Assembly (NCBI GenBank): GCA_036736085.1
Contig: DAINNB010000002.1
Location: 1-32,681, forward strand
DNA: 32,681 nt
Direction of reading: 5' to 3'
Source: Chlamydiales bacterium
GTDB taxonomy: Bacteria; Chlamydiota; Chlamydiia; Chlamydiales; SM23-39
Shown: piece after piece, positions 1-5,871 of the stretch
Numbering within the stretch: position 1 is the first letter of the stretch
How the letters are laid out: each line of letters begins with the position of its first letter
Made by a program: the position numbers and the translations under genes
Notes under the pieces: model-generated
Seen by the model: only the letters and a program-made list of their open reading frames with translations
Databases searched by the model: none
Told to the model about the DNA's origin: nothing

Positions 1-91
1 ATACCCAACGTGATCCAAAATTTGGTTGCTAGGAGGGTTCAAAGCGCCAAAAATCCCTCCTAGCAACCAAATTTTGAATCACGTTGGGTAT
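1..91. repeat. Long near-perfect inverted repeat (37 bp arms, 17 nt loop) at the window edge
   Basis: Arm 1..37 (ATACCCAACGTGATCCAAAATTTGGTTGCTAGGAGGG) is the reverse complement of arm 55..91, with one mismatch that would be a G:U pair in RNA. The loop is 38..54. The stem is much longer than an ordinary terminator stem. Confidence 0.8.
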
Positions 92-1069: not shown

Positions 1070-2110
1070 TCAGCTCCAGACAAGATTTGAAGCTGATTGA
1101 TACTCAGTTACTCGTGTTTCGAAAAAGTTTTTCTCTTTTCCTAAATCGATCGTTTCGCTCATCCAAGGGAAGGGGTTTTTGGAGCGGTAGATTGCTTTGA
1201 GCCCGATTCTTTCCAGTCTTCGGTCGGCGATATGCTGTACATAATCGCGGAACATAGGAGCCGTTAATCCTAAAATGCCTCGCGGCAGGCAGTCTTCCGC
1301 ATACTGAATTTCCAGTTCGACGGCTTGTTGGATCTTATCGATCACGTAGGCCTGAAATTCCGGAGTCCATAAATGGGGGTTTTCCTCTTTGATGGTGTTG
1401 ATGAGATCGATACCAAAATTAAGGTGGATGGTCTCGTCGCGCAAAATGTACTGAAATTGTTCTCCAATCCCTACCATTTTATTTTGACGTAAAAAAGAGA
1501 GGATCATAGCAAATCCACTATAGAAGAAAATTCCTTCCATGATGATATAAAAGCCAATCAGATTTTCTAAAAATTTCTGAGCGCCCTCTTGGGTTGTCGT
1601 GGTAAAATCGGGATGGAGCACATCTGCTGTCAGAGTCATTTCAAATGCGTCTTTATTATGGATCGTGTTGATTTCATTGTACATATTGAAGACTTCCCCT
1701 TGGTCGAGAGTGAGGGATTCCACAATATATAAAAAGGCGTGAGTATGGATCGCTTCTTCAAAGGCTTGTCTTAAAAGATATTGCCGCGCCTCAGGGTTCG
1801 TGATGTGTCGGAAGATAGCGAGGACGATATTGTTGCCTACCAAGCTTTCCGCCGTTGCGAAAAATCCCAAATTCCTCATGATGACGCGTCTTTCGTCTTC
1901 ATTGAGAGCGTTGGATTTCCACAGTTCGATATCTTTGCCCATGGGCACTTCATTGGGCATCCAGTGGTTTGCGCATCCATTCAAATAATGCTCCCATGCC
2001 CATGTATATTTTAAGGGCATAAGTTGGTTGACATCGACGGCATGGCAATTGATGAGCCGTTTGCTGGCGACATCAATTCGGTTTGTGTTCGTTTTCAATA
2101 CATTTTTCAT
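1070..2110 (-). CDS. nrdB: Ribonucleoside-diphosphate reductase beta subunit (R2), class Ic type
   Basis: Full-length ferritin-like R2. The metal-site motif reads [12 protein letters not shown], where E. coli has ETIHSRSYTH. The radical-Tyr position is Phe126 (codon 1733-1735), and the first ligand is Glu88 (FFATAESL, codon 1847-1849) instead of Asp. This matches C. trachomatis R2 (E89, F127). AAGGA RBS upstream. Confidence 0.95.
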
Positions 2111-2239: not shown

Positions 2240-5200
2240 TTACTGACAGCTTTCGCAGCCTTCTCCTAATGTGCAGACAGTTGGCGCGGAAACCTCTCTA
2301 TCGACCTTAATGTTGCTAGAGGCAGACTTGCTTTTCATCCAGCGGGGCTGGAGGCCTCGTTTGTTAATATCGATAGATGATTTTTCGATCTGCGTGGCTC
2401 CGAGCGAGCGGAGATAGTAGGTGGTCTTTAGTCCTTTTTCCCAAGCTTGCATGTACATTTGGTGTAATTTTTTGCCGCTGGGTTCGGACAGATAAAGATT
2501 GAGGGATTGGCCCATATCGATCCACTTTTGTCTGCGGGCGCCGCATTCGAGTATCCATTCCGGTTCGATTTCAAACGCTGTGAGAAATAGCTGCTTGATT
2601 TCATCGGGAATGCGCTCGATTTCTCGGATGGAGCCATCAAAGTATTTTAGATCGTCGATCATCTCCTCATCCCAAAGATTTTCTGCTTTGAGCCTTTCGA
2701 CAAGGTAAGGATTCGTGATCGTAAATTCGCCAGAGAGGTTCGATTTGACGAACAGATGCTTGTACATCGGTTCGATCGAAGGGATGGAGCCTGTAATATT
2801 TGCAATCGTTGCTGTTGGAGCGATCGCCATGGTGTTGCTGTTTCTTAGGCCATGTTTTTTTACAGCCTCTCTGACAACTGTCCAGTCCATCGATTTAGAG
2901 CGGTCCACGTCAATGGGAAGACCTCTTTCTTTTTCGAGGATTTCCAATGTGTCGATAGGTAAATAGCCCCGGTCCCATTTCGATCCTGCATAAGTAGGAT
3001 AGCGTCCTTTTTCTGCCGCCAGTTCCGTTGAAGCTAGGATGGCATAGTAAGAAATCATCTCCATGCTCTTATCTGCAAATTCGACAGCTTCGTGGCTGGC
3101 ATAGCTAATATTTTGCATGTAAAGAGCGTCTTGGAATCCCATGATCCCCATGCCGATAGGCCGGTGTCTGAGGTTGGCATTCTTGGCTTCTACTGTGGGG
3201 TAGAAGTTGATGTCGATCACGTTGTCGAGCATTCTTACGGCTGCTTTGATTGTGGCGGCGAGCTTCTTTTCGTCGAGGCCTTTGCTTGTCATGTGCTTGG
3301 CCAAATTGATCGAGCCTAAGTTACAGACAGCAGTTTCTTCCGCTGATGAATTGAGGAGGATCTCAGTGCATAAGTTAGAAGAGTGGACGACGCCTTGGTG
3401 ATCTTGAGGTGAGCGGATGTTGGAGGGATCTTTGAACGTGATCCAAGGATGGCCGGTTTCAAAGAGCATGCTGAGCATTTTTCTCCAAAGCTGGATCGCT
3501 TCGAGTTTTTTAAACAGCTTGATTTCTCCTGTTTCCGTCATCTTTTCATATTCAGCGTACCGTTTTTCAAAAGGAGCTCCGTAGAGATCGTGAAGATCGG
3601 GCACATCGCTTGGGCTGAAAAGAGTCCATGAGCCACCCTCTTTGACCCGCTTCATGAAGAGATCGGGAATCCAGTTGGCCGTATTCATATCGTGTGTGCG
3701 GCGTCTCTCATCGCCTGTATTTTTACGCTATTCTTAATATTCTTCGATGTCCAAATGTCAGGTTTCATAATAGGCGCACATAGCCCCTTTTCGTTTTCCT
3801 CCTTGATTCACCGCTACGGCGGTATCGTTGGCTACTTTAAGAAAAGGAATCACGCCTTGTGAAGTGCCATTGGTTCCTTTAATGCGAGCGCCTGTGGCTC
3901 GAACGTTCGACCAGTCGTTGCCGATGCCGCCTGCCCATTTAGATAGCTGAGCATCGTCGGCGACAACTTTAAAGATATGGTGGAGATCATCCATGACAGT
4001 AGAGAGATAGCAGGAGCTCAGTTGCGAGTGGAGCGTGCCTGAATTAAATAAGGTTGGTGTAGATGAGGTGAAATGAAATTGGGAGAGCACATGATAAAAC
4101 TCGATGGCTCTTTGGTTTTTTTGATCCCCTTCGCCAAGGGCGAGGCCCATAGAAACGCGCATCCAGAAAATTTGAGGGGTTTCCAATCTTCGCTGTTCAT
4201 GGTGGAGGAAATAACGATCGTAAAGAGTTTGGAGGCCAAGATAGGTGAATAGATCATCTCTCGATATATCCATGGCCTGTCCTAAAAGATCCAAGTCGAA
4301 ATCAAGCAGGTCTGGAGAGACGCGCTGATAGGAGATTGCTTGCCTTACATATTTTTTGAAATACTTTTGGTGCGCTTTTTTTAGACCCGAATCGGAAGCG
4401 GGAAGGCCCATTGTTTCTCTATACAAAATGTCGAGCAGAAGACGGGATGCGACCTGTGAGTAAGCGGGTTCTTTTTCGATTTTTGAGCGGGCCGCCATGA
4501 TATGGGCCAAATCGACCTCCTCTTCTTTAATCCCTATATAAAACTGGGCAAGGGAGGTATCTAGCATTTCATCAACGGAGACAACGGATTCTAACCCTCT
4601 GCAGGCAAAAGAGAGTTTTTTTCGCAGTTGATTTTCATTGATCGTGATTGTTTTTCCATCAGCCGCAACAATTTCAAATTCGCGCACATGAGCCCCTTCA
4701 TTTGAGGGCGCTGCCGCCATTTCGTGCTGCAAGTCTTATTCCGCGCTGTATAGGATATAGTTTCTCGCAACACCAAAATATTTTTCGCTCATCAACTCTC
4801 TTTCGATCCGATCTTCTACGGCATCGATATAAAGAGCTTCCCCTTGAGAAGATAAATAGATCATCTCGTCTACGATTTTTTTTGTGAGCACGTTCACAGC
4901 ATCGACGACTTCATCAGGAGACTGCTCTTCGATATTTCTCGCTCTTCTAAAAGCCCTTTCTATGGAAGAGGCGATTTTCATAGGATTGAAACGGGTGGGG
5001 GTCGTTTTATCTCGGCGGTAGATTTTCACGTTTTGCGGCGTCTCTTTTCGGGTCGCTTTGCGGCTGTCTCTATAAATAATGTAATCGCGGGCTACGTCAT
5101 GGTATCCGTTTTTCATTAAAGTGACTTCTACCACATCTTGGATCCCCTCCACGGTAAGGCACGCACCTTTAGATGCCAGGTTAAGCAATTGTTTCACCAC

Positions 5201-5473
5201 GCTGCCTGTGATTTGATCGATAACTGCTTCCAAATCTTTATCTAAAACTGCCGCTTCCGCTATGTTTTTCGTATCTCGAAAAGCCGCCTCGATCGCGCGG
5301 AAAATTCTTTCTCTTTTAAACGGGACCAATGTTCCGTTCCTCTTCACTACAGTATATTGCGCCTCTTTCGAAGAAATGTTTTTCCTGGCAACTCCTTTTT
5401 CTTGGCTCGCTTCCATTAATGAAACGGGATCGAGAAACGAAGTGGTCATATCATGATTGGTTTGTTTTTTCAT
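2240..5473 (-). pseudogene. nrdA: Ribonucleoside-diphosphate reductase alpha subunit (multi-ATP-cone, chlamydial type), interrupted by four in-frame stop codons
   Basis: Three track ORFs (4736..5557, 3758..4732, 2240..3688) share one reading frame. They are separated only by TAA 4736-4738, TGA 3758-3760, TAA 3734-3736 and TAG 3728-3730. Read through, the frame gives [49 protein letters not shown]-cone repeats (VVKRNGTLVPF, IYRRDKTTPTRF), the active-site SNLCTEI and the C-terminal Cys pair CESCQ are all present. The likely start is ATG 5471-5473 with RBS AAGAGG, not the track GTG at 5557. Confidence 0.85.
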
Positions 5474-5557
5474 TGTACTTACCTCTTTGGCGCAAAAAAA
5501 CTTAAGGTCCAGCGCAGTGTTTTTGTTTGTAAATAACTGGTTAATTTTTCGTGTCAC

Positions 5558-5605
5558 CTACCAGATGTGGTAGGTTTTTTCGGTTTACATAACTATATAT
5601 TGTAG
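5558..5605 (-). promoter_or_regulatory. Tandem NrdR-box-like palindromes upstream of nrdA
   Basis: Box 5590-5605 reads CTACAATATATAGTTA on the minus strand and matches 12 of 16 positions of the NrdR consensus acaCwAtATaTwGtgt. A second, weaker palindrome CTACCAGATGTGGTAG lies at 5558-5573. Centre-to-centre distance is 32 bp, the usual tandem spacing. Both sit 85-130 bp upstream of the nrdA start. Confidence 0.5.
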
Positions 5606-5745
5606 TCGGGGTTTTCTGGTCTAGAAAAAAAATACTCGTTCGCAGACCCATTTACACAGAGTCGTTAAGAGTAGCAAAAATAACCAAAACTTGCGATTTT
5701 TTTGTCTGAGAATTGTTTGAGGTTGTCACATTTCCTCGGCTTGTT

Positions 5746-5871
5746 TTGGGGCGCTACCCCAAACCCCGTTAAAGGACTACGCCCCTTAAAACCCCTTTTG
5801 CTTTTTTAAAAAAAACAAAATGGATTTTAAAGGACGCTAGTCCTTTAACGGGGTTTGGGGCAGCGCCCCAA
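5746..5871. repeat. Back-to-back inverted pair of the double-hairpin repeat (copy B), about 126 bp palindrome
   Basis: The left unit, TTGGGGCGCTACCCCAAACCCCGTTAAAGGAC..., and the right unit, ...AAAGGACGCTAGTCCTTTAACGGGGTTTGGGGCAGCGCCCCAA, are inverted copies around an A/T-rich centre (TTTTGCTTTTTTAAAAAAAACAAAA). Confidence 0.85.

Follow-up and report, generated by a model that had tools for sequence, protein, structure and literature searches.

Comparison of two assemblies of one strain indicates, with a probability of roughly 0.87, that the four in-frame stop codons of nrdA and the nine substitutions accompanying them are consensus errors of a low-coverage MAG and no property of the organism. 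The gene, which encodes the large subunit of a class I ribonucleotide reductase (RNR), lies on a deposited contig of 32,681 nt, the whole of which was analyzed and is referred to here as the window. The same comparison showed, at the level of assembled sequence, that the real nrdA of the strain is ordinary, intact, and strongly conserved. It was also shown that nrdA spans two points where poor coverage made another assembler break the sequence and insert Ns. An assembly or consensus artefact had been one of several options offered in an earlier note on this DNA, and it was the only one of them that fitted the comparative evidence.

The nrdA frame in the deposited record

The genes, stop codons, substitution patches, and assembly gaps considered in this work are listed in Table 1. 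In the frame of nrdA, the minus-strand translation around the affected motif is ...GAMCAYYET*HLDIEEY*E*RKNTGDE... (asterisks denote stops), and the codons from 3780 to 3720 are GCC TAT TAT GAA ACC TGA CAT TTG GAC ATC GAA GAA TAT TAA GAA TAG CGT AAA AAT. The earlier note had reported three different stops within 33 nt of the WHxDIxxFLxLRKN motif, each of them one substitution away from a sense codon and none associated with an indel. All of this was confirmed at the positions given in Table 1. The high conservation claimed for the motif was also borne out, since L569, W572, and L582 were invariant in 81/81 relatives and F579 was found in 80/81. The tyrosine at the position of a conserved leucine, which the note had attributed to a T-to-A change, is indeed present, but the path to it is longer than proposed: compared with the closest intact relative, codon 569 went from TTG to TAT by two substitutions, and the G-to-T part is also found in the sister assembly described below. 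Similarly, the description of the rest of nrdA as excellent held for the SNLCTEI and CESCQ motifs and for the intact nrdB, while a fourth stop at codon 246 and the second patch that contains it had been missed.

Table 1. Features of the nrdA region, in window coordinates
Feature	Position	Strand	Remarks
nrdB, RNR small subunit	1070..2110	minus	PF00268, E = 1.5e-91; adjoins nrdA; intact
nrdA, class I ribonucleotide reductase large subunit	2240..5473	minus	1077 codons + stop; four in-frame stops in the deposited record
In-frame TAG, nrdA codon 582	3728..3730	minus	TTG (Leu) in sister assembly and relatives
In-frame TAA, nrdA codon 580	3734..3736	minus	TTA (Leu) in sister assembly and relatives
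In-frame TGA, nrdA codon 572	3758..3760	minus	TGG (Trp) in sister assembly and relatives
Fourth in-frame stop, TAA, nrdA codon 246	4738-4736	minus	...YILYSAE*DLQHEM...; seen in ORF list and translation
Patch B, codons 569-582	3729..3768	minus	seven substitutions vs intact relative: L>Y, W>*, D>E, F>Y, L>*, L>*
Patch A, codons 234-247	4735..4773	minus	six window-private substitutions: D>G, K>R, R>S, K>*, N>D and one synonymous; holds the fourth stop
N-gap 1 of sister	4780..4797		just 18 nt shared by the adjoining contig ends; patch A is 7 nt away
N-gap 2 of sister	3645		one base missing between sister contigs; 84 nt from patch B

The stops are part of the deposited NCBI record, as an exact-sequence look-up returned fragment proteins of 245, 320, and 482 aa for the 32,681-bp contig. 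Pfam analysis of the three fragments identified two stretches of the ATP-cone PF03477 (E = 1.9e-31), Ribonuc_red_lgN PF00317 (E = 3.4e-23), and Ribonuc_red_lgC PF02867 (E = 4.6e-144), and the intact nrdA orthologue received the same annotation. The catalytic Asn-Cys-Glu loop SNLCTEI is readable in the translation, as is the C-terminal redox Cys pair (...GEGCESCQ*), and the closest PDB match to NrdA was 5im3_A, a class I R1. The unbroken frame with YLExWHxDIxxFLxLRKN that characterizes a class I R1 was interrupted by the four stops in the record of the window; both the sister assembly and a relative that is 98.6% identical at the nucleotide level have it complete. The NrdB protein is identical to that of the same relative. 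Judged from its sequence, the underlying nrdA-nrdB is an ordinary, strongly conserved operon of a Parachlamydiales bacterium. A search for the strict NrdR-box consensus returned no match at ≤3 mismatches; a looser palindrome, ACTACAATATATAGTT, is located upstream of nrdA.

Two substitution patches beside coverage breaks

In the 98.6% relative, locus L001 of GCA_964440435.1 carries an intact nrdA of 1077 aa, whose product is identical to that of the window outside both patches. The two genes differ by 33 nucleotides in 32 codons, with no indel along the gene. Twenty-one of the codon changes are synonymous, 20 of which are spread along the gene while one falls inside patch A. The 11 non-synonymous changes all lie within patches A and B, so that the nrdA sequence outside the patches shows 20 synonymous and 0 non-synonymous changes. 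With eleven amino acid changes, including four stops, inside 80 nt and none outside, the pattern in nrdA is unlike evolutionary decay.

Further relatives gave the same picture. A second nrdA, L178 (Logan DRR685534), is nucleotide-identical to that of L001 and was consequently left out as an independent relative. In the more distant lineage P0003, which is about 84% identical in nucleotide sequence across the wider region, nrdA is intact on 9 contigs and encodes an identical protein. At the four stop positions, sense codons were found in the sister assembly, L001/L178, L004, and L005. Broader decay of nrdA in related strains, which the earlier note had named as a sign of ordinary pseudogenization, was not observed; the relatives were intact, and the window contains no frameshifts or deletions in the gene.

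The same strain was assembled a second time as the Parachlamydiales MAG GCA_003448855.1, which contains the 32,379-bp scaffold DLXJ01000194.1 (HAB99567.1; loci L003, L006, L008, L015, and L016), which is referred to as the sister; this assembly and that of the window may rest on the same or on different reads. Outside nrdA, every aligned block of the window and the sister showed 99.93-100% identity, and the strain-specific synonymous markers of the window are also present in the sister scaffold. The identity was 98.8% in the 1,152-nt middle segment of nrdA. Over the 30.4 kb compared, there were 30 differing positions, comprising 13 window-private substitutions, 16 sister-private substitutions, and one indel. 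No fewer than 12 of the 13 window-private substitutions fall into the two patches, which measure 39-40 nt each and 80 nt in total. The chance of such clustering is about 1e-30 by a binomial calculation made post hoc.

Where the window has its four stops, the codons of the sister are AAA, TGG, TTA, and TTG. Between its gaps, the sequence at patch A is TAT TTT GAT GTT GCC AAA AAC ... CGC GCG GAA AAA AAC, and that at patch B is TAT TTT GAA ACC TGG CAT TTG GAC ATC GAA GAC TTT TTA GAA TTG. Consequently, the sister has none of the four stops, and it carries the ancestral base at 12 of the 13 positions substituted in the patches. Resequencing that revealed TGG, TTA, and TTG had been proposed in the earlier note as the sign of an artefact, and the second assembly of the strain has in substance supplied this result with exactly those codons. 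In patch B, six of the seven substitutions are private to the window, and each of them replaced a base by A on the coding strand (T on the plus strand), with the ancestral base kept in the sister at 3729, 3735, 3738, 3740, 3758, and 3768; among the codons affected is codon 578, which was changed from GAC to GAA (Asp to Glu). The remaining substitution of patch B, a coding-strand G>T at 3767, is the only patch change common to both assemblies and yields Phe569 in the sister. At this invariant Leu569, either L569F is a genuine change or the two assemblies share an error. In patch A, four of the six private changes are to G in the minus-strand reading.

The positions of the patches coincide with the breaks of the sister scaffold. 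Six N-gaps interrupt this scaffold in the 30 kb that it shares with the window, two of them inside nrdA. Both patches lie within ≤84 nt of such a gap, for which simulation gave P of about 0.002. They are situated just within the two ends of the 1,152-nt middle contig of the sister, where inward extension from the flanking contigs would end. In the sister, nrdA is split into fragments of 231, 383, and 467 aa. The gene is thus annotated as three partial proteins in both assemblies, where its frame is broken by stop codons in the window and by N-gaps in the sister. The protein cluster of the nrdA fragments also holds two full-length proteins of 1077 aa.

Two public datasets provided indications of sequencing depth. 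An ENA contig from ERZ1066136, which is 100% identical to window positions 9486-12660, carries the label cov_2.98. From SRR6482765, the Logan assembly yielded just one contig of the strain, which measures 3.9 kb and is likewise 100% identical. Based on this label and the small Logan piece, the depth of the organism is low in these two datasets at least.

Taken together, these observations are consistent with the following course of events. In the assembly of the window, each break would have been closed by the tail of a read or contig that had little support and reached inward from the flank. The final ~40 nt of each tail may have contained miscalled bases that were biased to one nucleotide, a bias that would be expected from degraded read ends. 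Read in this manner, the miscalls would correspond to the six private changes to T in patch B on the plus strand, 5′ to 3′, and to the four of six changes to G in patch A on the minus strand, and they would then have been retained in the consensus. The stops would stand in the most conserved motif because this motif happens to adjoin a coverage break. Errors of this kind should not be reproduced in another assembly of the same genome, and the private changes were indeed not reproduced in the sister, an assembly that may share reads with that of the window.

Several observations run counter to consensus error. Should the assemblies derive from different samples, the allele of the window could represent real variation. 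Where correct reads are available, an assembler of the bubble-popping de Bruijn type should normally choose them over a single erroneous one. Elsewhere the window is cleaner than the sister, with one private difference outside nrdA, so that 12 in one gene is a striking concentration. Finally, the 3767 G>T substitution is present in both assemblies.

Additional copies of the allele were sought in several ways. Exact-protein look-ups for further copies of the nrdA of the strain returned only the sister scaffold and the outgroup strain, and a protein search with the motif region found no fragment above 86% identity. A degenerate DNA pattern covering both alleles had no match in the JGI metagenomes, and protein-guided scans of the GTDB representatives and the JGI metagenomes revealed nothing nearer than 76-80%. 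A literature search on the run and assembly accessions found no paper.

Substitution spectrum and alternative explanations

The window, the sister assembly, and the outgroup strain were compared over the whole contig in a three-way analysis. The substitutions that separate the strain from the outgroup and are common to both assemblies (n = 551) comprised 71% transitions and were 76% synonymous. By comparison, the window-private class (n = 13) contained 4/13 transitions and 9/13 transversions, and 11 of the 12 in nrdA were non-synonymous. The sister-private class (n = 16) was similar, with 4/16 transitions, 12/16 transversions, and 11 of 15 coding changes non-synonymous. The excess of transversions over the shared class was significant for both the window-private (Fisher P = 0.003) and the sister-private substitutions (P = 0.0002). 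The latter include a stop (TTA>TGA) and a W>G change in a tilS-like gene (window 20184 and 20222), which is intact at these positions in the window and the outgroup. Since the private changes of both assemblies are rich in transversions and mostly non-synonymous, each assembly carries private, error-like noise that is blind to codon structure, with that of the window concentrated in nrdA.

This spectrum also bears on ordinary pseudogenization of nrdA in the lineage. Four in-frame stops are what such a process would leave behind, but the transversion-rich changes differ from the real substitutions of the lineage, the gene contains no frameshifts or deletions, and the 80 nt of the patches contrast with a remainder that has 0 non-synonymous against 20 synonymous changes. 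Moreover, nrdA is intact in all close relatives and in the sister assembly. We therefore consider pseudogenization in the lineage highly improbable.

A real and very recent inactivation in a sub-population or sister clone would involve two localized multi-nucleotide events, for example through error-prone repair synthesis, introducing 6-7 substitutions each. The stops do stand in the deposited record, the changes are clustered as in multi-nucleotide mutation events, and the window is very clean apart from these changes, as 30 kb contain just one further private difference. Chlamydiae are able to import nucleotides from the host, and the loss of RNR is thus conceivable in principle. Nevertheless, the 12 changes are all absent from the assembly of the same strain, and both patches adjoin its coverage gaps, which a biological event does not predict. 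No other decay accompanies the stops: there is no frameshift, nrdB is intact, and change elsewhere in nrdA is synonymous only. The 98.6% relative has a 100% conserved NrdA protein, and the 9 contigs of the distant lineage encode an identical one. The single-base bias of patch B is probably better matched by base-calling error than by any known signature of a polymerase, and the contig offers no template for template switching or gene conversion. Recent inactivation, as suggested in the earlier note, was accordingly judged unlikely, given that the rest of the gene shows synonymous change alone and the close relatives are free of broader nrdA decay. Even more doubtful is the full proposition that the window allele is real, with two independent localized multi-nucleotide events in one clone, four stops, and the very recent loss of the only visible RNR. 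If it were true, the organism would survive on host-derived deoxynucleotides and would have undergone an unusual process of patch mutagenesis.

Specific mutational mechanisms were examined separately. In a donor search, the mutated and ancestral stretches were compared with the whole contig on both strands, in direct and inverted orientation. The longest shared k-mers were 10-11 nt, which is at chance level, and the mutated bases were not covered, so template switching and gene conversion were rejected. Targeted mutagenesis of the DGR type was rejected as well, because the gene content of the contig and of its relatives includes neither a reverse transcriptase nor a template repeat, and the changes show no specificity for adenine. 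The localized hypermutation or repair scar mentioned in the earlier note was thus left with neither a mechanism nor a donor sequence.

Programmed recoding, in which the ribosome reads through or reassigns all four stops to produce a full-length R1, would agree with the preserved frame and the otherwise intact protein, and with nothing beyond these. It would require the decoding of three different stop codons, whereas TAA, TGA, and TAG terminate the other 24 genes (14 TAA, 7 TGA, and 4 TAG), none of which has internal stops. The accompanying missense changes strike invariant residues. In addition, the stops are not conserved in close relatives, and sense codons occupy their positions in the other assembly of the strain, by which recoding appears to be effectively refuted. 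Its probability is close to nil, and the option of recoding raised in the earlier note was given up on the grounds that all three codons act as terminators. A search for tRNA genes and Rfam families found none in the window. An altered genetic code or general read-through was rejected on the same basis, as all three stops serve as terminators and there was no tRNA or Rfam match.

With consensus error as the preferred reading, the underlying nrdA is normal and the stops have little biological importance. The case is of methodological relevance, since dense local substitution errors in contigs of low-coverage MAGs can give the appearance of a dramatic event, here several stops within an invariant motif. 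Comparison of two assemblies of the same strain exposes such errors.

Comparison with known systems

The gene shares its architecture with the class Ia NrdA-NrdB systems of the Chlamydiota/Pseudomonas type, in which R1 has extra N-terminal ATP-cones. The common features are the two ATP-cone stretches, the lgN and lgC domains, the SNLCTEI motif, the C-terminal CESCQ, and the adjacent nrdB. Without the 12 private substitutions, the nrdA described here would be an ordinary member of this group with no notable difference.

The patches resemble clustered multi-nucleotide mutations, as produced by quasi-palindrome template switching, error-prone polymerases, or DGRs, in that several substitutions occur within tens of bases and no indel is present. 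Unlike such mutations, they have no donor copy in the contig and are absent from the other assembly of the strain.

The resemblance to substitution errors in low-coverage short-read MAGs, caused by miscalls at contig ends or in read tails that persist in the consensus, extends further. Like these errors, the patches are private to one assembly, clustered within ~40 nt, located beside coverage breaks, rich in transversions, and biased to one base. They are also blind to codon position, mostly non-synonymous, and stop-creating, and the same class of error, including a stop, is seen in the sister assembly. The patches differ from the usual errors of low-coverage MAGs in being unusually concentrated, with 12 of 13 private differences in one gene.

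Private substitutions in nrdA and a tilS-like gene

Besides the stops near its centre, nrdA, which encodes the large subunit of class I RNR, carried a fourth in-frame stop codon (TAA, codon 246, positions 4736-4738), located within a second patch of six substitutions private to this assembly. Neither this stop codon nor its patch appears in the earlier note. At position 3767 (codon 569), a G>T change was common to the window and the sister assembly of the same strain (GCA_003448855.1). Residue 569 was Leu in 81 of 81 relatives, and the change would give Phe. Either L569F is a genuine substitution, or both assemblies contain one common error, in which case shared reads would be suggested.

The nrdA case was mirrored in the sister assembly by the tilS-like gene, which was intact in both the window and the outgroup strain. 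Sister-private changes affecting window sites 20184 and 20222 introduced an in-frame stop at codon 378 (TTA>TGA) and a W>G replacement at codon 391, and the gene was broken into products of 377 and 75 aa.

Repeats and assembly junctions

Double-hairpin repeats of one family, each ~50-60 nt long, were recognized in intergenic DNA, with the pattern GGGGCGCTGCCCCAAACCC(N4)AAAGGACT(N2)GTCCTTT, for which four matches were found against none expected by chance. The family resembles an element of the REP or MITE type in this lineage, and copies were located on either side of nrdA. When the sister locus L003 (12738-13744) was compared with the window from 2176 downward, the sister scaffold DLXJ01000194.1 diverged exactly beyond the copy of the repeat that lies downstream of nrdA, with unrelated DNA in place of nrdB. 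In the relatives' loci L001, L004, and L005, nrdA and nrdB were adjacent, as in the window. The break is probably a repeat-mediated misjoin of the sister assembly.

The start of the contig fell within a long inverted repeat, which probably explains why the contig ends there. This repeat is natural, because the same region was present in the relative GCA_964440435.1. Two palindromes were found upstream of the nrdA start, and a search with the strict NrdR consensus, allowing up to three mismatches, gave no match.

Features of the window by position
Feature	Position	Strand	Details
Long inverted repeat	1-91		arms 1-37 and 55-91, 97% complementary, 17-nt loop
Double-hairpin repeat	2195-2234	-
Second nrdA patch	4735-4773
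Palindrome	about 5556-5573	-	CCTACCACATCTGGTAGG
Palindrome, NrdR-box-like	about 5594-5609	-	ACTACAATATATAGTT
Double-hairpin repeat	5748-5787	+
Further double-hairpin repeat	about 5830-5870	-
LRR-NEL protein	8061-9962	-	633 aa
Protein without Pfam match	17334-19046	+
tilS-like gene	19052-20308	+
Double-hairpin repeat	25741-25780	+
Double-hairpin repeat	26003-26042	-
Protein without Pfam match	30988-31530	+

Divergence and fast-evolving proteins

L007 (window 1.9-22.2 kb) diverged from the outgroup strain by about 1.1%, and for L014 (window 13.6-32.7 kb) the figure rose to about 2.3%. One example of the higher divergence is the tRNA-synthetase gene (23901-25715), which differed from the outgroup at 58 synonymous and 0 non-synonymous sites. 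The higher divergence over 23901-32681 may reflect a recombination mosaic between strains.

While the differences of their housekeeping neighbours from the close relative were almost purely synonymous, the two proteins without a Pfam match had 13 non-synonymous versus 7 synonymous differences (17334-19046) and 16 versus 14 (30988-31530). The gene for the protein that combines leucine-rich repeats with a NEL (novel E3 ligase) domain had 20 non-synonymous and 11 synonymous differences from the 98.6% identical relative. Judged by these sequence differences, the LRR-NEL protein is changing quickly compared with its neighbours. Its pairing of LRR and NEL is the domain combination of IpaH/SspH-type effectors.
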